A stretch of DNA of 32,000 nucleotides. It comes from Telmatocola sphagniphila. GTDB taxonomy: Bacteria > Planctomycetota > Planctomycetia > Gemmatales > Gemmataceae. The notes below the pieces were generated by a model, which saw only the letters and a program-made list of their open reading frames with translations, searched no databases and had not been told where the DNA came from. The stretch covers positions 2,700,001 through 2,732,000 of the forward strand of contig NZ_CP074694.1 in assembly GCF_018398935.1 (NCBI RefSeq), given 5' to 3'. Positions within the stretch are counted from its first letter, which is position 1; each line of letters starts with the position of its first letter. Positions 961 through 22,062 of the stretch are shown in pieces. A program made the position numbers and the translations under genes.

Positions 961-2422
961 GTATCAATTCACAGTCTGTCCAGTCGTAGCGACTTGCTCT
1001 TGCGCTTTAGCGGAGTTTTTGCCATACTCTGGTCATGGATATCGTAACTGAAGAATTGATCGCTCGCCAACCCGCCGAAGCTCAGGCGATCATTCGTTTG
1101 CTTTTGGCCGAGGTTGCCAAACTGAAAGAGCAGTTGGCGCGAAATCCGGGCAATTCTTCGAAGCCGCCTTCGACGCAACATCCCCACGCCAAGCTTTCGA
1201 AGCAAGCGCTTAAGAAGGCCAAGCGGAAAGCGGGCGGTCAACCGGGACATACCAAGCACGAACGCTCTTTGGTATCGGTCGATCGCTGTATCGAAATGAT
1301 CTCCTGCAAGCCGACCGAATGCCGTCGGTGCGGCGAAGCGTTGAGCGGAACTGACCCCCAACCCCTGCGGCATCAAGTGTGGGAGATTCCCGAAATCCAG
1401 CCTTCGATCACCGAATATCAACTGCATCGGCTGCCTTGTTCCTGCGGCAAGACGACCTGCGGCGAATTGCCGGCGGGCGTTCCTTCCGGAGCGGCCGGAC
1501 CTCGATTGATCGCTTTGTCGTCTCTTTTAATGGTCTGTTTCCGACTCTCCAAGCGACGCTGCGCTCTGTTTCTGGAACAGATCCTGGGTCAGGAAGCTTC
1601 CGCCGCCTGGATGGTCAAACTTCAGAACCGGGCGTCCGAAGCTTTACAGCAGCCGTACCGGGAATTACAGCAGGCCTTGCCTGGGCAAGCGGTGGTTCAG
1701 GGCGACGAATCTCCCACCAAAGAAGGTCCGATCAAGGCTTGGACCTGGACTTTTGTCGCTCCCCGATTCACTCTGTTCGCCTGTCGGACCAGTCGCAAGG
1801 CCGAAGTAGTTCGCGAATTTCTCGGCCCAGCGTACTCGGGCATCTTGAACTGCGACCGGGCCAAAATGTACTGGGCTTTCGGACGCCTGCAATGGTGCTG
1901 GGCCCATCTGATCCGCGACTTCCAGAGCCTGATCGACCGGCCTTGTTCTGTGTCGAAGCGGTTGGGCCGGGACTTGCAACGGCAAACTCGAGCGATGTTC
2001 GAACTCTGGAAACGCATTCGAGACGGGAGCCTGGAACGCCCGGAATTCCAAAAGCGGATGGTTCCGATTCGCTCGCAAATCGAAGCCTTACTCCTTCGAG
2101 GAAAATGCGACCGGAAAACGCGAGGCCTGTGCGCCGAACTCTGGAAGTACCGCACTCGACTTTGGACGTTCGTCGAAGTGGAGGGAGTCGAACCGACCAA
2201 CAACGCGGCCGAGCGGGCCTTGCGGCCGTTCGTCATTTGGCGAAAAATCTGCTTCGGCACGCAATCCGCTGCCGGAAGCCGTTTCCTCGAGAGAATGCTC
2301 ACGGTCATCGAAACCTGCCGACAGCAAAAACGCAACTGCCTCGCATTTATCAAAGAGGCTGTCCAGGCTCACTTCAACAACAAAACGCCCCGCTCACTCC
2401 TGGCCGGGGCGTGAAGGGGTAC
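961..2422 (+). mobile_element. IS66-family insertion sequence, single-ORF type (no tnpA/tnpB)
   Basis: The termini are imperfect inverted repeats: GTATCAATTCACAGTCTGTCCAG versus the reverse complement of the right end, GTACCCCTTCACGCCCCGGCCAG. They share GTA.C..TTCAC...C.G.CCAG. The element is flanked by the direct repeat CACATAACG, contains one transposase ORF, and interrupts a reconstructable host gene. Confidence 0.85.
1035..2414 (+). CDS. IS66-family transposase (TnpC-like, DDE)
   Basis: 459 aa. Hallmarks: an N-terminal coiled coil, NSSKPPS, GGQPGH, a Cys-rich zinc-ribbon stretch (CRRCG...CSCG), DESP, CWAHLIRDF, and NNAAERALRPFVIWRK. The stop lies inside the right IR. Confidence 0.9.
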   Translation: MDIVTEELIARQPAEAQAIIRLLLAEVAKLKEQLARNPGNSSKPPSTQHPHAKLSKQALKKAKRKAGGQPGHTKHERSLVSVDRCIEMISCKPTECRRCGEALSGTDPQPLRHQVWEIPEIQPSITEYQLHRLPCSCGKTTCGELPAGVPSGAAGPRLIALSSLLMVCFRLSKRRCALFLEQILGQEASAAWMVKLQNRASEALQQPYRELQQALPGQAVVQGDESPTKEGPIKAWTWTFVAPRFTLFACRTSRKAEVVREFLGPAYSGILNCDRAKMYWAFGRLQWCWAHLIRDFQSLIDRPCSVSKRLGRDLQRQTRAMFELWKRIRDGSLERPEFQKRMVPIRSQIEALLLRGKCDRKTRGLCAELWKYRTRLWTFVEVEGVEPTNNAAERALRPFVIWRKICFGTQSAAGSRFLERMLTVIETCRQQKRNCLAFIKEAVQAHFNNKTPRSLLAGA

Positions 2423-2431
2423 CACATAACG
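2423..2431. repeat. Right copy of the target-site duplication (CACATAACG)
   Basis: Identical to 952..960 and adjacent to the right IS terminus. Confidence 0.8.
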
Positions 2432-2886
2432 AGCTAGCAAGGACCAAGAACGCCCTACGGCTATTGCGAGATCAAGGTGCGGAGTCGCTCATACACTGCG
2501 GCGATTTATCGAGTGGCTCCATCGTGGAAGTTCTTTCGGTCCTCCCGTGCTGGTTTGTGTTCGGGAATCACGATGCCGATGAAGTCCCGCAACTCCAGCG
2601 AGCGGCCATGGAATTCGGCCCAGTTTGCCTCGGTTGGGGTGGCCTGATTGAGCTGGGTGGAAAGCGTCTCGGAATCGTTCACGGACATATGAGTTGGGAC
2701 CTGCGACGGCTGCTTGATCGGAAGCCCGATTTTCTATTCTCTGGACACGATCACTTTCCTAGCGACAAGATGTTGCGAAATGGGAGACGAATCAATCAGG
2801 GTGCATTACACCGCACTGATCAATACACGGTCGCTCTCGTCGATTTGGAGACCGACGAAGTCAAGTTTCTACCGTTATCAGAGTGA
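2432..2886 (+). pseudogene. 3' fragment of the YfcE/MJ0936-type metallophosphoesterase; the track ORF 2464..2886 is its in-frame tail
   Basis: Joining 927..960 to 2432.. gives MRLGILSDTHNELARTKNALRLLRDQGAESLIHCGDL...FGNHD...VHGH...GHDH. This carries the full GD / GNHD / GH motif set of the family. The TTG at 2464 is an internal Leu codon of the rebuilt frame. Confidence 0.8.
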
Positions 2887-2934
2887 AATTATCCGGATTT
2901 CGCCATATTTATTCTTTGGTTTACAGCGCTAAAA

Positions 2935-2950
2935 GCGCATTATAATGCAC
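2935..2950. promoter_or_regulatory. Operator-like palindrome 1 upstream of hipB (GCGCATTATAATGCAC)
   Basis: A 16-bp inverted repeat preceded by AAAA. It is one of three related boxes with consensus nCGCAyTnTArTGCrC. It contains a TATAAT hexamer. Confidence 0.55.
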
Positions 2951-2994
2951 TCTTTGCTTGATTATGCTCTGGTTTTCAGGAATAATGGAATAAA

Positions 2995-3010
2995 ACGCAC
3001 TTTAGTGCGC
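2995..3010. promoter_or_regulatory. Operator-like palindrome 2 (ACGCACTTTAGTGCGC)
   Basis: Same architecture, again preceded by AAAA. Its centre lies 60 bp from box 1. Confidence 0.55.
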
Positions 3011-3055
3011 ATATTGGATTTAATAGGTTGATTCTCAAAGGTTCTTGATCAAAAA

Positions 3056-3071
3056 GCGCATTGTAATGCGC
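3056..3071. promoter_or_regulatory. Operator-like palindrome 3 (GCGCATTGTAATGCGC)
   Basis: Perfect 6-bp arms with a 4-bp spacer, preceded by AAAAA. Its centre lies 61 bp from box 2. It ends 11 nt before the hipB ATG, next to a GGAG at 3073..3076. Confidence 0.6.
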
Positions 3072-3082
3072 CGGAGTTTACG

Positions 3083-3310
3083 ATGTCGCCTCAGGAAATC
3101 GGTGTGCAATTCCGCTCGCGCAGAAAATACCTCAAGCTGCGACAACGGGATGTAGCAGAGCTAGCTGGCGTCACACTCCGGGGGCTTACAGCCCTGGAAA
3201 AAGGAACTGCGAATCCCACCCTCAAACAGTTGGTCAAAATCGCCGATGTCCTCGGATTAGCTTTCCACCTCAGCGAGGGAACGAACCATGCAGCAAGCTC
3301 ACGTCTATAG
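3083..3310 (+). CDS. hipB: XRE-family HTH protein, HipB-like component of a tripartite Hip module
   Basis: 75 aa. It has a typical Cro/C1 HTH (LKLRQRDVAELAGVTLRGLTALEKGTANPTLKQLVKIADVLGL). It is first in the operon and overlaps the next gene by 23 nt. Confidence 0.8.
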   Translation: MSPQEIGVQFRSRRKYLKLRQRDVAELAGVTLRGLTALEKGTANPTLKQLVKIADVLGLAFHLSEGTNHAASSRL

Positions 3311-3614
3311 TAGAGGCATCCTCGCGGGGGTTCTTTCCAAGGACTCTACGGGATACCACTTTCAGTACCTCTCCGATTATCTCGCTCAGGACAGCCGGGA
3401 GTACCCGCCTATCAGCCTGAATTTCCCGAAACAGAAATCGGCGTTCAAATCGAACTTCCTTTTCCCGTTTTTCTACGGTCTGCTGGCTGAAGGAGAGGAA
3501 AAAGCTCTGCAGTGCCGATCACTCCGAATCGATGATAAAGACCACTTCGCTCGTCTTCTGAAAACCTGCGAAGCGGAAACCACCAGCGGAGTCACCGTGA
3601 AGGAGATTCCATGA
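3288..3614 (+). CDS. hipS: HipS-like protein (stand-alone HipA N-terminal subdomain)
   Basis: 108 aa. The start (AHVYSRGILAGVLSKDSTGYHFQYLSDYL) matches the HipA N-terminal 'couple_hipA' pattern. Its stop overlaps the next start (ATGA at 3611..3614). Size and position match HipS of HipBST modules. Confidence 0.75.
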   Translation: MQQAHVYSRGILAGVLSKDSTGYHFQYLSDYLAQDSREYPPISLNFPKQKSAFKSNFLFPFFYGLLAEGEEKALQCRSLRIDDKDHFARLLKTCEAETTSGVTVKEIP

Positions 3615-4612
3615 ACGGTTGCCCGTCGTGCTTCAAGTCGGGCCACAACACCTTCTGCACAAGTTGCAGGAAACGTCTCTTCAACGGGAAAAAAGTCTCG
3701 CACATACTTCCCTTCTCCCGACCGGCTTACAATGAGGCCAAGTTAAAAGTCACACCCGAGAGAATGTCGATATCCGGCATTCAGACCAAAATGTCACTGG
3801 TGCTGGAAGGCACGCAACTTAAGATGGTGGAATCCGGGGGACAATATATTCTGAAACCCATCCCTCTGGGGCAATTCCAAAGATTGGAAGTGACACCGCT
3901 AAACGAACACTTAACCATGCAGCTTGCCCGACAAATATTCGATATTGATGTGGCCGATAACACGCTGGTTCAATTCGAGGATGGGCAGCCTGCCTATCTC
4001 GTGCGCCGATTCGACGTGCAAGCCGACGGTCGGAGAAGCCTGAAAGAAGATTTCGCCCAGATCGGCAACTTATCCGAAGAGAACCGCGGGCAAAACTACA
4101 AGTACGACTTCTCATACGAAGAGATTGGTGAACTCATACGGCAGTACGTGGCCGTGCACGCCTTAGATCTCGAGCGATTTTTCACTCTGGTAGTTTTCAA
4201 TTATCTGGTGAATAACGGAGATGCTCATGCGAAGAATTTTTCGCTGATGCGCGATGAGAATACCGGCGAATATCGGCTTTCTCCCGCTTACGACCTTCTC
4301 AACACGCGATTGCACGTTCCCTTGGAATCCCGAACGGCCCTGGATCTTTTCAAGGAAAATTACGAAACAGATAGTTTCAAGGCGAATGGCTTTTATGCAC
4401 ACGATGACTTCGTCGAGTTTGCTCGAAGGCTGAATTTAGTCGAAGGTCGCTACCAGAGAATCCTCAAGAAATCGACCGACCGGATCGGAGAGGTTTTTGA
4501 GTTCATAGATAAGTCGCAACTTCCTGCCGATTGCAAGACTTTGTACAGAGAGCATGTGACCGCCGCAGCGAATGCGATTGGCTATTCCTTGGCCAGATCG
4601 CAAAAAGGTTGA
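3611..4612 (+). CDS. hipT: HipT-like Ser/Thr kinase toxin (HipA C-terminal kinase core) with an N-terminal Cys4 zinc-ribbon
   Basis: 333 aa. It has a Gly-rich-loop region MSISGIQTKM (compare the S-I-S loop of E. coli O127 HipT), the catalytic motif NNGDAHAKNFSL, and the Mg-binding SPAYDLLN. The N-terminus carries CPSC-x9-CTSC. Confidence 0.85.
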   Translation: MNGCPSCFKSGHNTFCTSCRKRLFNGKKVSHILPFSRPAYNEAKLKVTPERMSISGIQTKMSLVLEGTQLKMVESGGQYILKPIPLGQFQRLEVTPLNEHLTMQLARQIFDIDVADNTLVQFEDGQPAYLVRRFDVQADGRRSLKEDFAQIGNLSEENRGQNYKYDFSYEEIGELIRQYVAVHALDLERFFTLVVFNYLVNNGDAHAKNFSLMRDENTGEYRLSPAYDLLNTRLHVPLESRTALDLFKENYETDSFKANGFYAHDDFVEFARRLNLVEGRYQRILKKSTDRIGEVFEFIDKSQLPADCKTLYREHVTAAANAIGYSLARSQKG

Positions 4613-4676: not shown

Positions 4677-5333
4677 TTACGCCAACAACACCGGGAAAAG
4701 ATGATGGCGGACCGAGTTTAAATCGTTCAGTAACCGGTCGGGATGCGCTTTTTCGAGCGTATCCCAATCGTGCGAGCCGGTGGCAACCAACCAGACTTCC
4801 ACACCGGCGGCCCGAGCCGTTTCCAGATCAATGGTCATATCGCCGACGAAAAGTGTTTCCGACTTCTCTTTTGACAACCGATGCATGGCCGCGAGTAGCA
4901 TATCCGGGGCGGGTTTAGGATGCGGAACATCTTCCGGTCCCATCACCACCGAGAAAAATTCGGCAACGTTCAGCGAGTTAACCAGCTGGCGGGTAATCGC
5001 CTGCGGTTTGTTGCTGCAGACTCCGGATGGAATGCCCTCCTCTTTCAATCTCTGAAGGAGTTCGATCGCTCCCGGTAACAATCGGGTATGCGAGAACATC
5101 ACCGAGGGATGATGTTGCCGATAAATCACGGCGTTTTCCTCCGGATCACTATCCGGGAGCAGGTCCTTCATCAACTGTTGGAGGCCGAAACCGACCTTGG
5201 TCCGCACGATCGATTCCGGCAACTCCGGTTTGCCGCGATAGTGCAGCACGTGATTGACGCTGGCGGTGATGGCGGCGTAACTATCCGCCAAAGTGCCATC
5301 GAAATCAAATAGGACACAACGATAGGGATTCAT
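4677..5333 (-). CDS. HAD-superfamily hydrolase, phosphoglycolate-phosphatase-like
   Basis: 218 aa. It has motif I FDFDGTLADS, motif II SNK, and motifs III/IV K...GDMTIDLETARAAG. Confidence 0.85.
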   Translation of the reverse strand: MNPYRCVLFDFDGTLADSYAAITASVNHVLHYRGKPELPESIVRTKVGFGLQQLMKDLLPDSDPEENAVIYRQHHPSVMFSHTRLLPGAIELLQRLKEEGIPSGVCSNKPQAITRQLVNSLNVAEFFSVVMGPEDVPHPKPAPDMLLAAMHRLSKEKSETLFVGDMTIDLETARAAGVEVWLVATGSHDWDTLEKAHPDRLLNDLNSVRHHLFPVLLA

Positions 5334-5350
5334 GATGCCATTCTAGGAAT

Positions 5351-5387
5351 GAAAAGAGAGACGCTTCCGATGGGAAAGTCGTCTCTC
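5351..5387 (-). terminator. Stem-loop with T-tract after the M50 gene; possible intrinsic terminator or attenuator
   Basis: On the minus strand, GAGAGACG (5386..5379) pairs with CGTCTCTC (5362..5355). An inner imperfect extension (GGGAAAG/CTTCC) adds to the stem, and TTTTCATT follows. It lies only about 17 nt before the HAD ATG, so read-through into that gene is also possible. Confidence 0.4.
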
Positions 5388-5409
5388 CAGAAATAGTTCG
5401 ACAGCGCTA

Positions 5410-7653
5410 TTATCGCAACAGACCCACATCCAGCGCGGTAGCGATATTTCGCCAGATATACCACGCCCCGGTCTTCCAGGCCGTGTGAATTTTCACCGTC
5501 GCCAAAGTGCCCGGCACGACGGCTTCATCGGGATCGAGGAGTTTCACATCGACGAGATAAGTCTGAACCAGTGGTTCAATCTGGTTCTGCTGGCTCGTCG
5601 GCTTGATGGCCAGACTGCCGCCTCCCTTACTCGTCAGACCCACCGGTACATCCTTTGCGGGAGCCTCCGGAAGATGGGTTATGACCCCTTTCATGATCCG
5701 ATCGGCTCGGCCGGCCACGCGGATGGAAACCTCGAGTTCGTGGTACTTCTGCAAATGCTCGGCCAGCAGCTGATAATCGAGCGGGCCGACCGGAACCAGA
5801 ATTCGCAATTTCGAAGGATCGCCAATCTTGCAGAGGGCCTTCTGATCCGACCTCTCCCACATCTTCAGATATTCGTCTTGATGCGGAATCCCCATCACCA
5901 CACCATCGCGCGGGGCTTTGATCGCATTGAGTGCGCCAAGTTGTTCCTTCAGAACCCGGGCCTGATCGCGATATTTCTTCTCATCGTTCGTCGATTGAGT
6001 GAGATTGGAATTCCACTGCGAATAGGCATTTTGCGAGTCGGGAGTTTTCTTGACCGGAGCCGATTTCAAGGCGTTCAAGCGATCGTGATAGACGCTGGCC
6101 TGCGCTTCGGAAATCAGATAATCCTCTTCCATTTTCGGATTGGTGAACTCGGCCAGCAGCTGCCCCTTCAGCACGCGCTGACCATCGAACACCGCGACCC
6201 GTTGCAGAAAGCCCGAATCGGCCGGATAGACCGGTATCAGCGCATCTTCCTGGAACTGAATCAGCCCCTTCTCCCGAATGCGGCTGACGGGCAACGGCAC
6301 CAGGAACAAACCTGCCAAAAGCGATGCACAGACCAGCAGCGTGACGGCCACTCGTTTGCGTTTCATGTCGGGTAACCTCCCTCGCTGACGAATATTTTTT
6401 GCAACCCGGAACATCGGCCAGAAAATCATGGTCGCCACCGCGGCGAAGGCCAGAATTAAACTTAACGATTGCAGTTTGTACGGTTTTAACCATCCGGACA
6501 AAAACCAGATGATGCTAAATGTCACGATCCAACGGTAGATGTAGCTGGTGACAGCATAAGTAACGAACAGCACTTTTCGGCTGGGGGCCATGTAGGGTTC
6601 GGGGGGCACTTCGATACCCAGACAGGTCTCGTTGAAAGCGTTCATCAGATAGCGATTGGAACGCTCGCGAAGATTCGGCACTTCCAGCCAGTCCGCCAGG
6701 ATGTAATAGCCGTCGAACCGCATCAGGGGATTGGCATTGAAGACGAAAGTGCTGATACTGCAGAGCGTCATCAACGACAAAGCCAGATTGTTGACGAAGG
6801 GCCACATCGGCGTGTACCACCAGACGAAGGTCGAGGTGGCCGCGATGATCAACTCCACATAGATTCCGGCGAAGCTGATGATGATGCGTTTCCATTTATC
6901 CGCCAGCGTCCAGGAATCGGTCACGTTGCAATAGAGCGCGGGCGAAAAGCACATTAATAGTGCGCCCATTTCGTGACATTCGCCCCCGAAAGCCTTACAG
7001 CTCAGGCCGTGCCCGAACTCGTGGATGACCTTGACGATCCCCAGCGAGATCCACATGTAAACGACGGTCTTGGCGTTGAAGAACTCGTTCTGAGCCGGCA
7101 ATTTATCCCAGAAAATTGACCACTTCATGGTGATCAGGGCGATCGCGGCCAGCATGTAGGCAATGCTGACGACCAGGAACCATTTGGTGAAAATCCAGGA
7201 GAGGTTTTTGTACAGGACGTTGAGAATGCGATCCGGATCGAAGACGGGCAGCTTGATGTAGAGGATATTCGTGATGCCCATCAGCTTCTTGGTGAGCCGA
7301 TTCTTCCGCCGCTTCTGAAACAGATGCCGACCGGCCAGGGCCGATTCGTGATTGACCAGACCACTGGTCACGAGTTGTCGAGCGAACTGTTCCAGATCTT
7401 CCAGCGTCAGTCGGTGCGGACGAAATTCCGTTTCGAAATTGGTCCGCACATCTTCCAGCGTCCGTTTTCCGTCCAGGAGCTGGAAAACGTAATATTCCTG
7501 ATCGTTGAATCGATAGTATTTCAGACCGACCGGATCTTTAACGACGTGGTAGATTTTGCCTTCGTAGCGTTGTCGGCTATGAACCAGATCGGCCCGGACG
7601 CACAGGCGCACCTGCTTGCGGCGTTCGGCATCTGGCACATATGTGGTATCCAT
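5410..7653 (-). CDS. M50 (site-2 protease family) intramembrane metalloprotease with a PqqD/RRE-like N-terminus and a C-terminal HlyD-type adaptor module
   Basis: The zinc motif IHEFGHG is encoded at about 7006..7026, and the second S2P motif is NPLMRFDGYY. After a late TM helix (VAVTLLVCASLLAGLFLVPLPV) come a lipoyl-like half, a coiled coil, a second half (IKAPRDGVVMG) and a beta-barrel. The track starts at TTG 7656; ATG at 7653 is more likely. Confidence 0.8.
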   Translation of the reverse strand: MDTTYVPDAERRKQVRLCVRADLVHSRQRYEGKIYHVVKDPVGLKYYRFNDQEYYVFQLLDGKRTLEDVRTNFETEFRPHRLTLEDLEQFARQLVTSGLVNHESALAGRHLFQKRRKNRLTKKLMGITNILYIKLPVFDPDRILNVLYKNLSWIFTKWFLVVSIAYMLAAIALITMKWSIFWDKLPAQNEFFNAKTVVYMWISLGIVKVIHEFGHGLSCKAFGGECHEMGALLMCFSPALYCNVTDSWTLADKWKRIIISFAGIYVELIIAATSTFVWWYTPMWPFVNNLALSLMTLCSISTFVFNANPLMRFDGYYILADWLEVPNLRERSNRYLMNAFNETCLGIEVPPEPYMAPSRKVLFVTYAVTSYIYRWIVTFSIIWFLSGWLKPYKLQSLSLILAFAAVATMIFWPMFRVAKNIRQRGRLPDMKRKRVAVTLLVCASLLAGLFLVPLPVSRIREKGLIQFQEDALIPVYPADSGFLQRVAVFDGQRVLKGQLLAEFTNPKMEEDYLISEAQASVYHDRLNALKSAPVKKTPDSQNAYSQWNSNLTQSTNDEKKYRDQARVLKEQLGALNAIKAPRDGVVMGIPHQDEYLKMWERSDQKALCKIGDPSKLRILVPVGPLDYQLLAEHLQKYHELEVSIRVAGRADRIMKGVITHLPEAPAKDVPVGLTSKGGGSLAIKPTSQQNQIEPLVQTYLVDVKLLDPDEAVVPGTLATVKIHTAWKTGAWYIWRNIATALDVGLLR

Positions 7654-7701
7654 CAAATTTCTTCCCGAGTTCCGTCGGCCATCCCTGATCTACTGAGGCA
7701 G

Positions 7702-7729
7702 AGCCCGCAACCGCATTGCGGCGCGGGCT
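7702..7729 (-). other. GC-rich intercistronic hairpin between the WD40-adaptor and M50 genes
   Basis: In AGCCCGC AA CCGC ATT GCGG C GCGGGCT, the outer 7-bp and inner 4-bp arms are perfectly complementary. No T-tract follows on the minus strand, so it is not a classical terminator. Confidence 0.5.
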
Positions 7730-7751
7730 AAACTTGATACTTTCGATGAAA

Positions 7752-9821
7752 TCAGGGCTGGATGATCACGGTCGCCGTATCGCCCGGTAAGAGCTGCCAG
7801 CGTTCTTCGGTCGGATTTTCCAACTCGGCGATGATCCTCACCGTTTTGCCGTTCGGTTCCACCTGGGAACCTTTTTTGGGAATCACCCCTTTATAAACGT
7901 GCGTCAATTCTTCGGTATCGGGCAGTTTCCAGAGATAAACCGATCCCTTCTTGGTACCCGCAACAATGAATCCCCCCACCCCGACGGTCGAGAATGCCGC
8001 GGCGGTGGCCTGAGCGTTGTCATCGCAGATGAGGTTTTCCAGTTCGGCACTCTTCCCGCCCCCGGTCGGAGTTTTCCAGACCTGCAGGCTCCCCTCGGTC
8101 GAACCGGTGGTGACGATGACGCGATCGCCTTTTTCGTTCAGCTTGGGTGACAACAGGGCCAGACCGGCGAACTTGTTGCTTTCGGAAGGAGATTGCAAGG
8201 TGCTTTCAGTCACACCATCTCCCAAGGTCACGATATTCAATCGGGTGGGATCCTGGTCGATCAGCATGCGATTCCCATCGTCGCTGACACCAAGATTGGA
8301 AACTTCACCGCCGCGGTGGTCGAAGCTTCTTTCCACCGTGGCATTCTTGTCTCCCATCTTCCAGACGCAGGCGGCATCATTGTCCTTACCCACGGAAACC
8401 ACACGGCCCTGGGGCAGAAACGCCAGCTTAACTACTGGTTGGACGTGTTTGCGTTCTTCAAACTTGTAGAGTTTCTTCCCCGTCGCGGTTTCCCACAGAT
8501 AAATGTCCCGTTCATCCGACGTCACGCAATATTTGCCATCGGGAGAGATCGCACAAGCGAGAACCCCGCCCACATGGTGACCATCGAATTCTTTGGCTTC
8601 CGACTTGGGGGTACCGATGTACCAGAGTCGAGCTTTACCATCATCGCAACCGGTGACGATGAACTGTTTCGCCACGCTGGGAAGGGTGCAGGCGAGTGTA
8701 CGAACCGGTTCCTTATGCTTGAAAGAAGCTTTGATGGATTTCAAATCCCACATGTGAACCGAGCCATCTTCGCTGGCGACGAAGACCAGATGATCCGGCC
8801 CGAGTCGGGTCGTCGCGATAGCCGTGATTGGCCGGCTACTGGTTCGAGGCATCGTCAAGTATTTGCCCGTCTTACGGGAGGGCTGAATCGTGACGGCCAT
8901 ACCGTCCTGGATTAAGCCCAAGTTCTGAACGTCGACGGCCCCTTCGATTTGAAGGTGCTTAGTATCCTGGATTTGCAGAATGGTTTCGCCGGCCTTGATG
9001 GCATCTCCAGCCTGTTTATTGATTGATTGGACTCGTCCACTGAGTGCGGGCGAAATCGTGTGTCGCGACAGCTTCTCCTGGGCCGTATCAAATTCCACTT
9101 TGGATTTACCCAAAGCAGCCTTCTTAGACTCCGCCTGGGATTCCGCAACCGTGACTTGAGCTTTACTCTTCGCAACTTCGATATCGGGAACTGCGGCCTT
9201 ACCTTCTTTATTGGCTTTCAAATTGGATCTGTATTCGAGATCATAATACTCCACTTGTTTCCTTGCGGATTTTTCATCGGCAACCGCAACATCCATAGCT
9301 CGTAATGCGGAAAGAACATTTAAGATGGACATCTTATCCTCGAGTAAAGCGACGGGCTTGTCCTTCTCAACGTAATCGTTCACTCGCAGGCGGATATAGG
9401 TATAAATTTTCGCAGGTTGACCTTCTTGGGTATAAGGATCTTTCACATCCAAATATTCGAAGGGATCTGAAGGCTTCTGTTCGCCCGGACGCAAGGGACG
9501 CCCGATCCAACGGATCGTCCCTTCGAGTTCGCTCGGCACATCCTGCTTCGCGGGCAGAACAATGTGTCCCTGGGGGACCAGAATCGGATCGGCTTTGATA
9601 ACACCCGTCTTGATATCCGCTTTATCGAAGGCTACCGCTTTGGGATAAAGCAGGTTGCCGATCTCCACCGGGGTACTTGGCTGGTTGGAGGTCACATTCG
9701 TATTGGCCGAAGAAAGACCGTTACCGATGTTCACCGCATCGGACTTGATGGTTACCGGATCGCAAGCGGTCAGGGCCAGCAAGCCCACTCCTAGCAGCGG
9801 TAAAAATCTTCGCATATTCAT
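7752..9821 (-). CDS. Lipoprotein: HlyD-type adaptor with a 7-bladed WD40 beta-propeller inserted in its beta-barrel domain
   Basis: 689 aa. It has a signal peptide with lipobox LLALTAC. Next come a lipoyl half, a long coiled coil, a second half (SPALSGRVQSINKQAGDAIKAGETILQIQD) and the barrel start. Seven WD-like blades follow (VHMWDL, ARLWYI, IYLWET, ACVWKM, LNIVTL, LQVWKT, VYLWKL). The barrel then closes (GKTVRIIAELENPTEERWQLLPGDTATVIIQP). GAGG precedes the ATG. Confidence 0.8.
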   Translation of the reverse strand: MNMRRFLPLLGVGLLALTACDPVTIKSDAVNIGNGLSSANTNVTSNQPSTPVEIGNLLYPKAVAFDKADIKTGVIKADPILVPQGHIVLPAKQDVPSELEGTIRWIGRPLRPGEQKPSDPFEYLDVKDPYTQEGQPAKIYTYIRLRVNDYVEKDKPVALLEDKMSILNVLSALRAMDVAVADEKSARKQVEYYDLEYRSNLKANKEGKAAVPDIEVAKSKAQVTVAESQAESKKAALGKSKVEFDTAQEKLSRHTISPALSGRVQSINKQAGDAIKAGETILQIQDTKHLQIEGAVDVQNLGLIQDGMAVTIQPSRKTGKYLTMPRTSSRPITAIATTRLGPDHLVFVASEDGSVHMWDLKSIKASFKHKEPVRTLACTLPSVAKQFIVTGCDDGKARLWYIGTPKSEAKEFDGHHVGGVLACAISPDGKYCVTSDERDIYLWETATGKKLYKFEERKHVQPVVKLAFLPQGRVVSVGKDNDAACVWKMGDKNATVERSFDHRGGEVSNLGVSDDGNRMLIDQDPTRLNIVTLGDGVTESTLQSPSESNKFAGLALLSPKLNEKGDRVIVTTGSTEGSLQVWKTPTGGGKSAELENLICDDNAQATAAAFSTVGVGGFIVAGTKKGSVYLWKLPDTEELTHVYKGVIPKKGSQVEPNGKTVRIIAELENPTEERWQLLPGDTATVIIQP

Positions 9822-9910
9822 GATACCTCGGAGAATAAGTTTAAGCTAACCCAGCCAGCGCTATACGTGAAATAAACCGGAGCAACTCGTGGCCGCTCCA
9901 GGGAAGTCAT
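9818..9910 (-). CDS. Candidate 30-codon sORF (MTSLERPRVAPVYFTYSAGWVSLNLFSEVS) filling the gap between the GAF-adaptor and WD40-adaptor genes
   Basis: Hand translation of the minus strand: the ATG at 9910 lies 5 nt after the upstream TAA, and the TGA at 9820..9818 overlaps the downstream ATG (ATGA). There is no homology evidence. It is supported only by its exact fit and its coupling at both ends. Confidence 0.25.
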   Translation of the reverse strand: MTSLERPRVAPVYFTYSAGWVSLNLFSEVS

Positions 9911-9915
9911 AATTT

Positions 9916-12060
9916 TTACAACCAGAAAATTACGTGTTCGTGCAGGAAGTCGAACACGCCGTAAAACAGCGAATAGCCCAGAGAGTGATTGCCGCAACGG
10001 ATATTGGTTTTCACTTCCAGGCCCGTTAGCAACAAACCCTGTTGAATGTGTTCATCGAGAGGCATTTCCGGATCGTTCACAGTGACGATTGCCGTGACCA
10101 CCGGCTCGGATTCGTTGTGATCATCCTTATTCGCAACGGCTTCGCTCGTGATATCCTTGCGATAGAGCCGTCCCGCATACTTCACGGTGGTCTGGCTCGA
10201 GAGCATCACGTCCACATTCAAGTACTCGTTCGGATCCTTGGTCTGGAACGCACGAAGAATCTGGCCGATGTGCTTTTGGGGAATCTTCTGTTCGATTTCC
10301 CAAGCGCCGGAGGTGTTCGCGATTCGCAGGATTGGTTCCGTGGGTTTCAGAGGCCGATTCAACAGGGTTTCGCGTTGATCGGGGGAAATTACGTGCCATT
10401 CGGGGATTGCCCCGTTACCTACGCGTGCTCGTTCGAACTGGGGAGCTTGCACTACGATGACGCCAGGTTTATTGATATCCGAGTTAGTCGATTTCAGTTT
10501 CTGATTGAGTTCTTCCGACTTGGCCCGCAAGGTCGTGCGGTATTCTTCCAGCTTAGATGCTCGATCCGCCTTTTGATCGGGAGTCATTTTGTCATCTCCC
10601 AAAGCATTCTGCTGCAGCACGTCGATATTGTTTTTCGCCCCGTCAATTTCCGTTTTCAGCTTCATGATATCGGCTTTAAGCTCATTCGATTCCAGAATGG
10701 CGACGGGAGTTTTCGGCAGCACGACATCGCGCGGTTTAACCCGAATTTCGCGGACCTGCCCTTCCATTTGCGGGAAGATATAACGGCGTTCCTTGGGCAG
10801 CAATTGCCCCTTTGCATCCATTTTCAGCGGGTAAGGAACATAAATCATCGCGCAAGTAATGAGTGCCGCGAGGGCAAGACCAAAAATCGTGTAAAGCCGC
10901 GTCTTCCCCCCAACGCCCTTCTGCACCCAGGAAACCGGTTTCCAGACCACCTTCAAAGGAACGGCCTTCATTTCCGCCGCGTTGTATAAAGCACTAGCGG
11001 CGTGGGGAGCCATCACTTCCAGGCGTTGAATGAGTGGTTCGCTGCGTTCGGGCGGCTCAAAGCATTCCATCAAGATGGCCGAGCGGCAGGGCTTCTCTTT
11101 TTCCTTGTCCTTGGGCCGTTCCCGCTCATCGCGAATCGGTTTGAGGACCAGCAATTTCGAGTTGCTCTCGGCTAAATAGCGATCAAGAGCATTCAAAACA
11201 GCAGGCGGCAACGATTCATCGCGCTGGCCACGATAGGTCAAAGTTTCGTTCCATTCGATCACTTTGTCGAATAGCTTCCGCATCGACCGAACGTGTGTAC
11301 TCGATTTTTCGACGACATCCGCGCCGCTGACGCACTCTACCGTCGTTTTGCGGCCATGCTGCACACCGACCGAAACCCGGTCGCATTGGATGAGTCGTCG
11401 GCCTTCATTGGCGATCTGGAAAGCGACTTCGGCCGGAGAGAGCGAACTGTGGATTTTCTGGGTGAATTTCTCGAGTCCCTGCCAGACTTCTTCCTGCTGC
11501 GTATTTTTTCGGGCCGAGTGATTGCGGTTGTAATTCGACGCATAACCGGCCATCTGCTCGATGTAGCGGTAAAAAGTAGCGTGAATCCGGTTATCGGTAT
11601 AAGGTTCGGTCCAGACTTCGAGCAGTCCGACAATGGCATTCTCGTCCGATACGATCGGCGAGAGAATGACCACATAATCGGTCAGGTTCGCAGCCTGGCT
11701 GCCATCCTCCGCGCTCATGGCCGCGTAAGGTTCGAGCATAATGGGCCGGGCCACCGCGAAGGCCTGCCGTAGCAACTCGTTGTGAATCTGACGTCCCTGC
11801 GGTTTATCGTCGAGGCCGACTTTGGCCATATTCTGCTGGCATTGAATCTGAAGGAAGCCTTGCGGCGTCTTGATCCAGACTGCGCCGGCGAAGCCATCGA
11901 TCCCGGCCAGGACCCGGGCCAGGAAAGTCTCGAAGTAATCGGTGGGAGGGAGGTTGGAACCCGAAAGCTTGGCAACTTCTTCGAATGCAGTGTCTATCTG
12001 ACGGGAGAGACGCTTCATTCCGTCGTTGTCTAAAGACATGGGAGTAACCTTGTTTACCAC
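9916..12060 (-). CDS. Tandem-GAF, single-TM, HlyD-type adaptor fusion protein
   Basis: 714 aa from GTG 12060 (alternative ATG at 12039). It has two GAF-like segments (..VVILSPIVSDENAIVGLLEVWTEP.. and ..RLIQCDRVSVGV...SAILMECFEP..). These are followed by the TM helix LYTIFGLALAALITCAMIYV, a lipoyl-like half (GQVREIRVKPRDVVLPKTPVAILES), a coiled coil, a beta-barrel, and a HlyD-like hydrophobic C-terminal tail. Confidence 0.75.
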   Translation of the reverse strand: MVNKVTPMSLDNDGMKRLSRQIDTAFEEVAKLSGSNLPPTDYFETFLARVLAGIDGFAGAVWIKTPQGFLQIQCQQNMAKVGLDDKPQGRQIHNELLRQAFAVARPIMLEPYAAMSAEDGSQAANLTDYVVILSPIVSDENAIVGLLEVWTEPYTDNRIHATFYRYIEQMAGYASNYNRNHSARKNTQQEEVWQGLEKFTQKIHSSLSPAEVAFQIANEGRRLIQCDRVSVGVQHGRKTTVECVSGADVVEKSSTHVRSMRKLFDKVIEWNETLTYRGQRDESLPPAVLNALDRYLAESNSKLLVLKPIRDERERPKDKEKEKPCRSAILMECFEPPERSEPLIQRLEVMAPHAASALYNAAEMKAVPLKVVWKPVSWVQKGVGGKTRLYTIFGLALAALITCAMIYVPYPLKMDAKGQLLPKERRYIFPQMEGQVREIRVKPRDVVLPKTPVAILESNELKADIMKLKTEIDGAKNNIDVLQQNALGDDKMTPDQKADRASKLEEYRTTLRAKSEELNQKLKSTNSDINKPGVIVVQAPQFERARVGNGAIPEWHVISPDQRETLLNRPLKPTEPILRIANTSGAWEIEQKIPQKHIGQILRAFQTKDPNEYLNVDVMLSSQTTVKYAGRLYRKDITSEAVANKDDHNESEPVVTAIVTVNDPEMPLDEHIQQGLLLTGLEVKTNIRCGNHSLGYSLFYGVFDFLHEHVIFWL

Positions 12061-12320
12061 GGAGGCAACCTCGCTCGTCTGAAAATTAACGAAATAGTCG
12101 AACTACCATTCTATCAGGAAGGTCCAGCGCTGATGCAATCGTTTTTATCGGAAAAATCCCTTTTATTGGACTTATCCAACGTCTGTAGAGTGCCAACCTC
12201 TGGGCGCACAATCCTCATTATCGGATAGACGGTATGATCGGCTAAATCGCTTTAAGTTGATTTCGGGCGATTCAATCGGTGAAATGTATTAAATCGTTAT
12301 AAATCCTACAAAAGTCAAAT

Positions 12321-12674
12321 TCAGAACTGAGCCAGATGATCATTTTCCCATTTTAATATTCGCGCCATGGCTTCATCCGCTTCACATTTTTCTTCCGGTA
12401 TCGGAAATTGGAATCGCTCGGTAGCCGCTAGCTGCAGCGCGCCGGCTTTGGAGTGACCATCCGACCAGAGAACCACGAATTTGCTGATCGCTCGGGCTTT
12501 TTTCTGCAGTTGACCGATTTTTTGATTGGCGTCGCCGACGTCGGGGATTGTTTCTTCGAGCAGTTCCGCCCAATCAACGAGCCACTCCACGAGCATGCGG
12601 GCTTCGATATCCCCCAGTCCGCGCGTCAGAGCTTCGTCATTGATTATGCGACGATACATCGGTTCTACAATCAT
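12321..12674 (-). CDS. Hypothetical small acidic helical protein
   Basis: The track ORF begins at GTG 12689. The ATG at 12674 is preceded by GAGGGGGA at good spacing, so 117 aa (MIVEPMYRRIINDEAL...) is more likely. I recognise no motif. It is co-directional with the adaptor-chimera operon and lies 260 bp upstream of it. Confidence 0.6.
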   Translation of the reverse strand: MIVEPMYRRIINDEALTRGLGDIEARMLVEWLVDWAELLEETIPDVGDANQKIGQLQKKARAISKFVVLWSDGHSKAGALQLAATERFQFPIPEEKCEADEAMARILKWENDHLAQF

Positions 12675-12936
12675 CCAATTCCCCCTCACATCATTGCGGT
12701 CGGTGAAACGAACTTACCCCGGATCGATCTTGGGAGTATTCGAATGAATCGCTCCCCAGGTCCACTGGGATGGAAGAACTTCCCCGCCGCTCTGAATAGC
12801 CGTCAGGCCCCCACTGACAGGCGGGACCATAACGGTCGGCAGCTTTAGAAGCAACCTCAACCTTATCCTGTTGCGTTCAACCCCTTTTCAAGCGTATAAC
12901 AGCATTTCAGCCAACATAAGAAAAACAGGAACAGGT

Positions 12937-15282
12937 ATGTATTCGATCTCGCCGGGATTGTTCGGAATAATCGCCAACTCCTCTCAACTCGAATGGCTGG
13001 ACCTTTTCGCAATCTGCGCAGCTTTCCTGCTTTACCTTTTCGGGCTGATACTTTTCCCCAGATTTTTCGCTCAACCCCTAATCTGGTTGCTCACACACAC
13101 CATCTATAGGGTTCGCATTTTCGACCGCGACAAAGTTCCCGCGGAAGGACCGGCTCTGATCGTTTGTAATCATGTCAGCTATGTCGATTGGCTTTTTGTC
13201 TGGGCGGCTTGCCCGCGCAAGGTGCGATTTGTCGGCTGGGCCGGTTTCGCCAAGTACCGATTGATCTCCTGGGTTTTTCAGATCACCAATACGATCCCCA
13301 TCGATATGCGGGCCAGCCCGAAGGCGATTCTGCGAACGCTGGACAGCATTGCGGAAGCGCTGGACGCCGGAGAGGTCATTTGCATTTTCCCGGAAGCCAC
13401 TCTGACGCGGACGGGAACCATGCTGCCCTTCCATCGCGGCATGGAACGAATTCTGAAAAATACGAAACGCGATGTGCCGATTATCCCCACGTTTCTCAGT
13501 CAGGTCTGGGGATCAATCTTCAGCTACCGGACTGGTAAATTGTTCTGGAAGCTGCCGGAACAGATTCCCTACCCCGTCATGGTCACTTTCGGTTCAGCAT
13601 TACCGAAAACCACACCAGCAGCTGAAGTGAGGCGCGTCCTCGAAGAAGTTTCGGCCGAGGCGGCCATTCGCGAGCAGGCGTATCTGCTCCCCCCCCATCG
13701 CTGCTTCGTTCGAAGGGCGTGCAAATTCCGATTTTTGAACAAGCCCTGCATCATAGACACCAGTACTCCCGTGCACCGCACGCTGAGCTTCGGGAAGACT
13801 CTGGTCGCCAGCATCTGTTTGTCGCGCTGGTTAAAAACCAAATTGGGAAATGAAATCTACGTCGGCATTTGGCTTCCCTCCAGCGCGGGCTGCGCGCTCG
13901 CAAACGTAGCCCTGGGATTACTTGGAAAAACGACCGTTAATCTCAACTACACGGCCGGAAAGGAAGCCAACCTCTCTTCAGCCCGTCACGGTATGAAAGC
14001 CGTTCTGACCTCCCGGAAGTTCCTCGAAAAGATTCCTCTGGAATTAGATGACTCCATCGAGCGAATTTTTCTCGAAGACGGCGTCAAAGCGATCAGCAAG
14101 TACCAGCAAATTTCCACTTTCCTGAAAGTCGTTTTGCTTCCTGGGTGGGTGGTCGATCTTTTCGTACTGCGGTTGGGTAAGCAAAGCGTCAAAGATCAGG
14201 CCACGGTCATCTTCTCGAGCGGCACTACCGGTCAACCCAAGGGAATCGTTCTCAGCCACGGAAATATCACTTCGGAAGTCTCCTCATTCTGTCAGCGGGT
14301 GGGCTTCATTACCTCCGACCGATTTCTGGGCGTTTTGCCGATCTTCCACAGTTTTGGCTACACGGTCACCTTCTGGGCTCCGCTGGTTTCCGGATTTTCG
14401 GTCGTGTTCTATCCCGATCCCCGTCAGGCCCGAGAGATTGGTGAAATCTGCCGGAAACACCGGTGCACACTCCTGGCCAGTACCGCCACTTTTCTGCGCC
14501 TCTACATTCGCCGTACTGAAAAAGCGGACTTCGCAACTTTGCGGATCATCGTCTGCGGCGCCGAGAAATTACCGCCGACTCTCGCCGAGGAATTCCACAA
14601 AACCTTCGACATCTGGCCTCAGGAGGGTTACGGCTGTACCGAACTTTCCCCCGTAGTTTCGGTAAACATCGCGGATGTCGCCCTGGGAGGTTTAACGCAA
14701 CAGAACCAGCGCATCGGCTCGATCGGCCAGCCGATTCCGGGAGTCGCCGCACGCATCGTCAATCCCGATACTTACGAATCGCTCGGCCTAAACAAGGAGG
14801 GGATGCTCCTAATCAAAGGGCCGAACGTCATGCTCGGCTATCTGAACCAACCGGAAATGACGGCCAAGGTCATTCGAGATGGATGGTATGTCACGGGCGA
14901 TATGGGTAAGATCGACGATGATGGCTTCATTTACATCACCGGTCGAATCTCTCGCTTCGCCAAGATTGGCGGCGAAATGGTACCGCTGGAAAAAGTCGAA
15001 GAGGAGATGCTCAATATTGTCGGAACGGCCGATCGCCTTCTGGCTTTAACCGCCATACCAGATGAACGCAAAGGCGAACGCCTGATGGTATTACACCTAT
15101 CGTCCCTGCAGGCCAACAAAAAAGAGATCCTGACGAAATTGAGCGAAAAAGGAATTCCCAATCTCTGGATTCCGGGCGAGCGGGACTTCTTCCAGATCGA
15201 AGAACTGCCCGTGTTAGGTACCGGCAAACTCGACCTCAAGAAACTCAAAGATCTGGCGCTGGAGATAGGTAAAAAATCGTGA
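12937..15282 (+). CDS. aas: Bifunctional lysophospholipid acyltransferase / acyl-ACP (AMP-forming) synthetase, Aas-like
   Basis: It has an N-terminal TM, then the PlsC acyltransferase motifs NHVSYVDW and FPEATLTRTG. An adenylate-forming domain follows (SSGTTGQPKGIVLSHGN, GYGCTE, TGDMG, GGEMV). The track starts at TTG 12871. The ATG at 12937 has an AGGAACAGG upstream and is preferred. Confidence 0.85.
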   Translation: MYSISPGLFGIIANSSQLEWLDLFAICAAFLLYLFGLILFPRFFAQPLIWLLTHTIYRVRIFDRDKVPAEGPALIVCNHVSYVDWLFVWAACPRKVRFVGWAGFAKYRLISWVFQITNTIPIDMRASPKAILRTLDSIAEALDAGEVICIFPEATLTRTGTMLPFHRGMERILKNTKRDVPIIPTFLSQVWGSIFSYRTGKLFWKLPEQIPYPVMVTFGSALPKTTPAAEVRRVLEEVSAEAAIREQAYLLPPHRCFVRRACKFRFLNKPCIIDTSTPVHRTLSFGKTLVASICLSRWLKTKLGNEIYVGIWLPSSAGCALANVALGLLGKTTVNLNYTAGKEANLSSARHGMKAVLTSRKFLEKIPLELDDSIERIFLEDGVKAISKYQQISTFLKVVLLPGWVVDLFVLRLGKQSVKDQATVIFSSGTTGQPKGIVLSHGNITSEVSSFCQRVGFITSDRFLGVLPIFHSFGYTVTFWAPLVSGFSVVFYPDPRQAREIGEICRKHRCTLLASTATFLRLYIRRTEKADFATLRIIVCGAEKLPPTLAEEFHKTFDIWPQEGYGCTELSPVVSVNIADVALGGLTQQNQRIGSIGQPIPGVAARIVNPDTYESLGLNKEGMLLIKGPNVMLGYLNQPEMTAKVIRDGWYVTGDMGKIDDDGFIYITGRISRFAKIGGEMVPLEKVEEEMLNIVGTADRLLALTAIPDERKGERLMVLHLSSLQANKKEILTKLSEKGIPNLWIPGERDFFQIEELPVLGTGKLDLKKLKDLALEIGKKS

Positions 15283-17327: not shown

Positions 17328-17363
17328 TAGTCCAATCAGACTATCTTTAGTATGATCGGACTA
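17328..17363. promoter_or_regulatory. 36-bp near-perfect palindrome, candidate TetR operator
   Basis: TAGTCCAATCAGACTA, a tctt spacer, then TAGTATGATCGGACTA. The reverse complement of the second box matches the first at 14 of 16 positions. It overlaps the first ATG (17352) of the TetR ORF and ends 3 nt before the second ATG (17367). Confidence 0.55.
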
Positions 17364-19459: not shown

Positions 19460-19462
19460 AAC

Positions 19463-22029: not shown

Positions 22030-22062
22030 TCCTCTTGGTCTAACTCCGATTAAAGGCGAATA

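Follow-up and report, generated by a model that had tools for sequence, protein, structure and literature searches.

Three membrane-fusion protein chimeras of Telmatocola sphagniphila as the probable core of a type-I-like secretion apparatus without an ABC transporter

What could three membrane-fusion proteins do together when the operon that encodes them holds no pump? This question is raised by three adjacent, co-directional genes, here referred to as g1, g2, and g3, in a 32-kb stretch of DNA (the window) from Telmatocola sphagniphila (Gemmataceae, Planctomycetota). A preliminary description, made from the sequence, had placed these genes 94 and 98 nucleotides (nt) apart, recognized an adaptor layout in each product, and listed no ABC, RND, MFS, or TolC gene in the operon. 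Both gap lengths were exact on recount, and we likewise found none of these transport genes in it. The database proteins KIH39_10735 (g3) and KIH39_10745 (g1) are 100% identical to the window proteins, and the start favored for g3, ATG 7653, is that of the database protein. As detailed below, the products of g1, g2, and g3 are membrane-fusion proteins and paralogues of one another, and all three carry adaptor domains that are recovered by profile hidden Markov models, by fold, or by both. The trio is probably the core, in inner membrane and periplasm, of a secretion apparatus that is type-I-like, has no ABC transporter, and belongs to a module previously described around secondary SecA_DEAD proteins.

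That module was discovered from the SecA side. Kamneva, Poudel, and Ward (PLoS One 2015, PMC4452313) took as their starting point secondary SecA_DEAD proteins without the scaffold/wing domain (SecA_SW) and described a locus, found in Planctomycetes and four other phyla, with a GAF-HlyD/biotin-lipoyl protein, an M50-HlyD protein, and an HlyD/biotin-lipoyl protein together with the SecA_DEAD protein, sometimes an OEP/TolC protein, and no ABC transporter. Those authors proposed that the SecA-like protein is the ATPase and the M50 protein the inner-membrane pore, and they noted that the components can be scattered around the genome; no functional test was reported, and their text names no PqqD/RRE domain, no WD40 domain, and no substrate for the locus. 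Their inference of secretion is independent of the analysis presented here. All three proteins are found in T. sphagniphila, with g3 as the M50 and HlyD protein, g1 as the GAF and HlyD protein, and g2 as the third HlyD adaptor, while the optional OEP/TolC component is not found within the window. Compared with the published module, the SecA-like and OEP/TolC genes are absent from the locus and the small adaptor has a WD40 insertion. The earlier statement that no known system combines these modules is hence wrong at the bioinformatic level. In the literature searched, we found no experimental follow-up of the module and nothing relevant on M50/HlyD/GAF, LEPR-XLL, DUF4347, or DUF3467. A 2026 preprint on Chlorochromatium that discusses giant proteins with sapC and tolC on their flanks, as well as a secA gained by horizontal transfer, does not describe the module; the SecA_DEAD domains inside giant proteins in a preprint on Omnitrophota giant genes are a different matter.

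The g3 protein combines a cytoplasmic domain resembling PqqD and the recognition element (RRE) of ribosomally synthesized and post-translationally modified peptide (RiPP) systems with an M50 protease and an adaptor (Table 1). It matches Peptidase_M50 with an E value of 7e-10, and the motifs HEFGH (residues 211 to 215, nt 7023 to 7009) and NPLMRFDG (residues 308 to 315, nt 6732 to 6709) are invariant in 30 orthologues. Judged by its sequence, g3 thus has the HExxH and NxxPxxxxDG motifs in separate helices that define M50 (site-2) proteases, in agreement with the intact protease fused to an adaptor of the preliminary description. The adaptor profiles HlyD_D23 and RND_mfp match g3 weakly; among the orthologues, M50 was found in 30 of 30 and HlyD_D23 in 20 of 30, and the AlphaFold2 (AF2) model of g3 matches the folds of MexA and MacA (E = 1e-13). 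A conserved C-terminal helix (residues 729 to 740) follows the adaptor segment. The PqqD/RRE-like domain, placed at residues 36 to 100, had been overlooked, as had a conserved 117-amino-acid (aa) open reading frame (ORF) and a hairpin in the g1-g2 gap. Pfam PqqD matches 19 of the 30 orthologues (best E value, 1.4e-8) and also alphaproteobacterial homologues at the same coordinates, with 28.7 bits for the Methylosinus copy, and the AF2 model has strands at residues 16 to 50 and helices at residues 51 to 97. A sequence-profile search of the PDB with the g3 alignment returned adaptors and biotinyl domains alone and no RRE or M50 structure.

Residues 40 to 413 of g3, that is, the RRE-like and M50 parts, align over nearly the whole of NF041824, the model for the daptide intramembrane metalloprotease (E = 1.3e-50), and g3 also matches NF058609 (YydH/LiaK; E = 1e-12) and, weakly, NHLM_micro_HlyD. 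HlyD-type adaptors are common in bacteriocin exporters. These similarities and the PqqD/RRE-like domain would fit a system that matures and exports a small RiPP or bacteriocin, with g3 acting like the daptide and YydH leader peptidases and the adaptors exporting the peptide. However, g3 reaches 172.6 bits with NF041824, far under the 300-bit cut-off of that model, and it differs from both peptidase families in its additional 300-aa adaptor and in having no RiPP genes nearby. A modifying enzyme, a short precursor, or an ABC/C39 exporter is not conserved across the 81 loci that we compared, and the conserved neighbors in relatives are instead proteins of 1,300 to about 12,900 aa with a common leader. 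We therefore regard a small-peptide system as unlikely. The 81 loci are the best 80 of at least 580 stretches with g3 relatives, from Gemmatales and Isosphaeraceae, that were obtained by scanning one genome per GTDB species, and the locus of Limnoglobus roseus.

For g1, the AF2 model (predicted local distance difference test score, 84.7) shows, in this order, a GAF-like domain, a long helix, a second GAF-like domain, one transmembrane (TM) helix, a lipoyl domain, an alpha-hairpin, a beta-barrel, and a conserved C-terminal helix. In Foldseek searches, the model matched the tandem GAF domains of PDE5/PDE6 (3lfv, 3mf0, and 6x88) over about 400 columns with E values of about 3e-9 and the efflux adaptors MacA, ZneB, AcrA, and MexA with E values of 1e-11 to 1e-8. 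As a long helix connects its two GAF folds, the modeled cytoplasmic part of g1 is that of a PDE-like tandem GAF protein. In the window copy, Pfam GAF was not found and the HlyD_3 match is weak (E = 0.059); in orthologues, GAF and HlyD_3 were each found in 13 of 30, and the GAF matches fall at both GAF positions. A PDB sequence-profile search with the g1 alignment gave adaptors and biotinyl domains alone, with no GAF domain. The cytoplasmic GAF pair on an adaptor that had been read from the sequence is hence backed by the fold match and by the 13 orthologues, not by a Pfam match of the window copy.

The adaptor nature of g2 is apparent from profile scores (RND_mfp, 3.8e-13; HlyD_3, 4.7e-10), as is its WD40 content (WD40, 3.7e-19; whole-propeller families, down to 1.8e-19). 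Seven repeat units were counted by eye, and a direct reading of the sequence places the lipobox LTAC at residues 17 to 20, at the end of the signal peptide. A seven-blade WD40 propeller on a lipoprotein adaptor, as previously proposed, is thus upheld at the level of sequence, but the propeller is inserted within the beta-barrel and not fused to an end. Its position follows from a comparison with the 320- to 345-aa counterparts of Isosphaeraceae and the small adaptors of proteobacteria, which are without the propeller; in g2, the last barrel strands pick up after it (residues 641 to 686). On these alignments, the insertion is a lineage-specific feature of Gemmatales.

The trio is also kept together in related genomes, as the preliminary description had led one to ask. 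When the window proteins were searched against the 81 loci by tblastn, the order g1-g2-g3 was kept in 52 planctomycete loci, and nearly all loci without g1 or g2 are contigs that stop just upstream of g3. The exceptions, which have long upstream flanks, are two Zavarzinella loci (L004 and L006) and loci L045 and L075. In both Zavarzinella loci, the 117-aa ORF and g3 are present with a 484-aa reverse-strand ORF between them, and g1 and g2 are not in the flanks, so the module appears to be split there. The Isosphaeraceae set consists of g1 (28% identity), a plain 320- to 345-aa adaptor without WD40, and g3.

The three proteins could also be ordinary adaptors of a conventional ABC or RND pump encoded elsewhere, as in a scattered type I secretion or efflux system. 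A candidate pump is present in the window, about 6 kb from the trio, at 17352 to 24243 on the plus strand: a TetR gene, an adaptor gene (486 aa), an ABC ATPase gene, and genes for two FtsX/MacB-type permeases (604 and 726 aa), with no gene for an outer-membrane factor in this operon. The missing outer-membrane factor would suit such a reading, as would the adaptor parts predicted for g1 and g3, which are closest to MacA. However, this MacB-type operon has its own 486-aa adaptor, and an ABC ATPase gene lies within 10 kb of the trio in only 3 of the 81 loci, which also settles the earlier concern about adjacency to an ABC exporter. A MacB/FtsX homologue was found in none of these loci, and relatives pair with a SecA-like ATPase instead. 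Together with the proteobacterial loci described next, none of which (0 of 5) lists an ABC exporter beside the module, this makes a conventional pump elsewhere very unlikely.

Full-length relatives of g3 (25 to 27% identity and 91 to 99% coverage by tblastn) are found on plasmids of Alpha-, Beta-, and Gammaproteobacteria, and five annotated loci were inspected. In Methylosinus, a giant LamG protein of about 8,800 aa is accompanied by DUF3467, a 629-aa adaptor, the M50 fusion, a "prepilin peptidase," a small adaptor, and TolC. The Mesorhizobium locus encodes a giant Ig-like protein of about 10,500 aa with DUF3467, a small adaptor, a 516-aa adaptor, the M50 fusion, and a "DEAD/DEAH helicase," and that of Pseudosulfitobacter encodes a "LEPR-XLL domain" protein of about 12,900 aa with a 620-aa adaptor, the M50 fusion, SapC, a "prepilin peptidase," and a small adaptor. 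On an Escherichia coli IncF plasmid, an Ig-like protein of 4,460 aa is found with TolC, a small adaptor, a 449-aa adaptor, and the M50 fusion; in Burkholderia, a DUF4347 protein is found with TolC, a small adaptor, a 482-aa adaptor, and the M50 fusion. All five loci thus combine the M50-adaptor fusion with one small and one mid-size adaptor and with a giant repeat protein, TolC is encoded in three of them (Methylosinus, E. coli, and Burkholderia), and their annotation shows no ABC exporter beside the module. GAF domains are present in the mid-size adaptors of all three alphaproteobacterial loci, and the best matches of g1 outside its phylum are GAF-bearing proteobacterial adaptors. Because g1 pairs with the proteobacterial mid-size adaptors and g2 with the small adaptors in reciprocal phmmer searches, the three-adaptor set is one conserved module; the Isosphaeraceae counterpart of g2 matches the small adaptors with E values of 1e-11 to 3e-16. 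In the plasmid database PLSDB, 26 records of E. coli and Citrobacter plasmids match g3. A compact module, with the 4,460-aa Ig-like protein bearing the leader LESRQLFDGA, is found on the E. coli IncFIA/IncFIB plasmid NZ_CP081687.1 (locus L083, 44829 to 64580).

The component that could energize export is hidden behind annotation. By direct profile scan, two genes labelled "prepilin peptidase" encode proteins that match SecA_DEAD (1e-103) and SecA_PP_bind (1e-25); against TIGR00963, they score 4e-178, which is below the cut-off, with the N-terminal two-thirds alone covered. The Mesorhizobium "DEAD/DEAH helicase" is SecA-like by its tblastn match to these two proteins. The SecA-like ATPases that carry one or the other label in RefSeq are located at 11165 to 13081 in locus L082, 14993 to 17017 in L085, and 14138 to 16099 in L084, and the names given to the M50-adaptor fusions vary between "PqqD family protein," "hypothetical protein," and "HlyD family efflux transporter." Both sets of names look like systematic misannotations.

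In Gemmataceae, the SecA-like gene is found in cis between g2 and g3 in one locus (L037), directly after g3 in three (L003, L005, and L033), and within 10 kb of the trio in another (L073), and the protein is 68 to 97% conserved across the family. The order in L037 is g1-g2-SecA-like-g3-DUF3467, with a DUF3467 match of 2e-18. L033 and L037 are two contigs of one metagenome-assembled genome (Gemmataceae CA_2019_TPBF_221), each with the trio and a SecA-like gene in cis, and this genome thus seems to have the system in two copies. Since the SecA-like gene of L. roseus lies 2 Mb from the trio, an unlinked motor is normal in this family. That gene (locus L090) overlaps by 11 nt a gene at 12054 to 13568 for a 504-aa polytopic membrane protein without a Pfam family, which may be a further partner; no homologue of this protein was found in the other loci. 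"Pump-less," as the T. sphagniphila operon had been called, is accurate for this operon but not for its family, in which a truncated SecA-like ATPase is found in relatives, often along with TolC in those from proteobacteria.

The giant proteins offer a clue to the cargo. The five proteobacterial ones have no hydrophobic Sec signal and, by eye, have a basic stretch at the start and then LEPRxLL(S/N)AD or a variant of it (MEALEPRFLLSAD, FEALEPRLLLSAD, FDTLEPRVLLNAD, LALEPRVVYDAS, and FALESRQLFDGA). One of the five exceeds the cut-off of NF012209, the LEPR-XLL model (2e-7). In seven Isosphaeraceae loci, a 1,270- to 1,640-aa S8 subtilase-like protein is encoded next to g3 on the opposite strand, preceded by DUF3467, and its N terminus, where readable, has an "LEERKLLAP"-type motif (IQELEERKLLAP, VQALESRQLLAP, LLEPRCLLAP, and IQRLEERLVLAP). 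Similar N termini are found in a 435-aa protein adjoining g3 (L080), in a 1,055-aa protein upstream of g1 (L053), in an FG-GAP protein near the L. roseus SecA-like gene, and in proteins of loci L064 and L075. Leader-motif matches within the window were rejected as internal and spurious, and a 1,580-aa plus-strand ORF in L074, which overlaps a minus-strand S8 gene and has no leader at its N terminus, was taken as an antisense artifact. We know of no description of the secretion route of LEPR-XLL giant proteins. Release or export of a processed peptide had been suggested for the operon; the likely cargo is rather a large or giant leader-bearing protein than a small peptide or a signaling fragment.

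Regulated intramembrane proteolysis, as carried out by RseP and SpoIVFB, is the activity for which M50 proteases are best known, and tandem GAF domains are a typical sensor module. The trio might hence be a self-contained signaling scaffold in which the GAF domains sense a cytosolic ligand and the M50 protease cleaves a membrane substrate in a regulated manner, with neither transport nor a motor. A scaffold that couples ligand sensing to intramembrane proteolysis was raised in the preliminary description; the coupling of the two activities would be pure conjecture. An operon without an energizing component would suit this model, and so would clear expression of the GAF gene alone in Methylobacterium extorquens. 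It gives no role, however, to three adaptors with alpha-hairpins of the efflux-pump type, and linkage to SecA-like ATPases, TolC, DUF3467, and leader-bearing giant proteins is seen for homologous modules. No sigma or anti-sigma genes are conserved near the trio in relatives, and an RRE-like domain would be expected where a peptide leader is recognized. For these reasons, a signaling scaffold seems to us an improbable explanation.

In light of this, a working model can be proposed for a secretion apparatus built on the trio. The three adaptors would form one hetero-oligomeric periplasmic duct that docks on a TolC-type outer-membrane channel; the hetero-oligomeric, periplasm-spanning assembly envisaged earlier thus stays the most plausible arrangement, now tied to the putative export of a processed polypeptide. 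As the substrate-entry subunit, g3 would recognize, through its RRE/PqqD-like domain, an N-terminal leader (a basic stretch and then L-E/D-x-R-x-L-L-S/A) on large exoproteins without a Sec signal, and its M50 domain, with both catalytic motifs intact, may remove this leader by analogy with RiPP leader peptidases and C39-ABC bacteriocin exporters. The truncated SecA-like ATPase, whose gene is found in cis in other genomes, would supply the energy and drive translocation. A DUF3467 protein accompanies the candidate substrate gene in relatives. From the cytoplasm, the tandem GAF domains of g1 may gate or regulate the machine, and the WD40 propeller of g2 may provide a periplasmic docking surface specific to Gemmatales. 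The motor, the outer channel, and the cargo of T. sphagniphila are presumably encoded elsewhere in its genome.

We put forward more tentatively, and at somewhat less than even chances, that these parts make up a distinct, as-yet-unnamed pathway of diderm bacteria, in which a leader made of a basic stretch and LEPRxLLSA is read by the RRE-like domain and cut by M50 and a truncated SecA-like ATPase threads large and giant proteins through a hetero-oligomeric duct of three adaptors and TolC, with the GAF domains as a gate and DUF3467 as a chaperone. The module itself was already known bioinformatically; the links to the leader, to DUF3467, and to the RRE-like domain and the arrangement of substrate and DUF3467 genes in Isosphaeraceae are added here.

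Several points weigh against a secretion apparatus of this kind. The 32-kb window contains no SecA-like gene, TolC, DUF3467, or leader-bearing protein, and a T. sphagniphila SecA-like protein was absent from the best 120 matches of a search with the Limnoglobus copy. No SecA-like gene adjoins the module in the E. coli and Burkholderia loci. In the window copy of g3, the Pfam PqqD match (E = 2.3e-4) reaches 21.9 bits, just under the cut-off of 23.4. The leaders of the planctomycete proteins were assigned by a regular expression and by position, with no match to the NCBIfam LEPR-8K leader model; they come from module-centered loci rather than a genome-wide background, and the Isosphaeraceae S8 proteins, being orthologues, count as one evolutionary event. 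The evidence presented here comes from sequence and predicted structure, and leader cleavage by M50 and a single three-adaptor complex are both putative. In M. extorquens, moreover, the GAF gene is the sole clearly expressed one of the module (Kamneva et al. 2015, PMC4452313).

How would such an apparatus relate to established systems? The adaptors share the lipoyl, alpha-hairpin, and beta-barrel build of those in type I secretion (HlyB-HlyD-TolC) and in the MacAB-TolC and AcrAB-TolC pumps, and a TolC gene is found in three of five proteobacterial relatives. The dedicated ABC transporter paired with the adaptor that characterizes canonical type I secretion is not found, however: the trio has no ABC, RND, or MFS transporter and three adaptors in place of one, its putative signal is N-terminal rather than C-terminal, and the candidate motor is a SecA-like ATPase. 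Bacteriocin exporters that combine a C39-ABC protein with an HlyD-type adaptor recognize an N-terminal double-glycine leader and cut it with the exporter's own protease. The logic proposed here is alike as a functional analogy, but the M50 protease and RRE-like domain are fused to the adaptor, and the candidate cargo is very large. The daptide and YydH/LiaK peptidases, as discussed above, align with the RRE-like and M50 parts of g3. In Gram-positive bacteria, SecA2 systems use a second SecA paralogue for a subset of surface proteins that are often very large. In contrast, the SecA paralogue of the module lacks the scaffold/wing domain, is partnered by adaptors, M50, and TolC rather than by SecY2/Asp proteins, and is not encoded in this window.

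The positions of the features discussed here are given in Table 1.

Table 1. Positions in the window of the g1-g2-g3 genes, their predicted domains, and adjoining elements
Feature	Position	Strand	Basis or remarks
117-aa ORF upstream of g1, gap about 260-280 nt	12321..12674	minus	Homologues in 31 planctomycete loci; overlooked by the preliminary description
g1 (KIH39_10745), tandem-GAF membrane-fusion protein	9916..12060	minus	ORF from GTG 12060; database ATG 12039, 707 aa
g1 predicted cytoplasmic GAF-A (residues 5-145), linker helix (151-196), GAF-B (202-359)	10963..12027	minus	AF2 secondary structure, Foldseek, orthologue Pfam
g1 predicted TM helix (about residues 378-406) and periplasmic lipoyl/alpha-hairpin (452-518)/beta-barrel with conserved C-terminal helix (687-704)	9928..10908	minus	
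Terminator-like hairpin, g1-g2 gap (94 nt)	9877..9901	minus	10-bp stem, then UUUAUUU
g2, lipoprotein-type membrane-fusion protein with inserted WD40 propeller	7752..9821	minus	689 aa
Seven-blade WD40 beta-propeller (about residues 325-640), between strands of the g2 beta-barrel	7902..8849	minus	
g3 (KIH39_10735), RRE/PqqD-like, M50 metalloprotease, and membrane-fusion protein	5410..7653	minus	ORF 7656/7653; database ATG 7653, 747 aa
g3 predicted cytoplasmic PqqD/RRE-like domain (about residues 16-102)	7348..7608	minus	Pfam PqqD and AF2
g3 M50 polytopic membrane domain with HEFGH and NPLMRFDG	6382..7236	minus	
g3 predicted last TM helix (residues 432-451) and periplasmic lipoyl, alpha-hairpin (506-576), beta-barrel	5488..6360	minus	
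Hairpin and U-run immediately 3' of the g3 stop	5334..5409	minus	Minimum free energy -23.1 kcal/mol, z -2.17; 5/200 shuffles fold equally well

Two hairpins bear on how the genes are transcribed. The one behind the g3 stop probably ends the transcription unit, in which case the HAD hydrolase gene that follows (4677 to 5333) would be a separate unit. The one in the g1-g2 gap may be an internal attenuator, so that g1 is plausibly, though not certainly, transcribed together with g2 and g3; terminator-like sites across the region as a whole are no commoner than expected by chance. Taken together, the two hairpins, of which the one behind g3 is the stronger, point to an operon that is attenuated behind g1 and ends ahead of the HAD hydrolase gene. 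An internal terminator was inferred after the homologous GAF gene of M. extorquens (Kamneva et al. 2015, PMC4452313).

Apart from the trio, the 117-aa ORF is the only neighbor that is widely conserved in the planctomycete loci. Its product is helical and non-membrane and is predicted to be cytoplasmic, with the conserved stretch DEALTRGLGDxEARxLVEWLVDWAELL; no Pfam, NCBIfam, or PDB family matched it, and its identification as a divergent DUF3467 protein was rejected (hhalign probability, 0.1%). In Gemmatales, the ORF may have an accessory role in the module. Further upstream, on the plus strand (12871 to 16076), the window has an Aas-like gene, in which acyltransferase and AMP-binding parts are fused, and a gene for a SpoU methylase. 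This divergent pair recurs near the trio in several Gemmatales loci, being placed upstream of the 117-aa ORF and the trio in L001, L017, L018, L027, and L032 as well, with no evident functional link.

The downstream context of the trio differs among the compared loci. In the window, it includes, just past the HAD gene (1035 to 4612, plus strand), an IS66-family transposase, a metallophosphoesterase, and a HipA toxin encoded as separate N- and C-terminal-domain ORFs, which hints at a local rearrangement. At the other end (26707 to 31953, minus strand) lies a gene for a very large secretin (1,748 aa), in which seven stretches match Secretin_N and the Secretin domain is at the C terminus. This giant secretin, an MFS gene, and the MacB-type operon were rejected as partners of the trio, with which they are not syntenic elsewhere.

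In summary, a module known from comparative genomics, when combined with DUF3467 and a common leader, turns a 10-year-old observation into one that can be tested experimentally. It also calls for corrected annotation of the SecA-like genes and of the M50-adaptor fusions. If the proposed pathway is real, known parts, namely, a SecA-like motor, an M50 protease with a recognition domain of the RiPP type, and three adaptors, would work in a new combination, and many Planctomycetes, Proteobacteria (including E. coli with IncF plasmids), Verrucomicrobia, Nitrospirae, and Chlorobi would export very large surface proteins by a route that uses no ABC transporter and no classical Sec signal.

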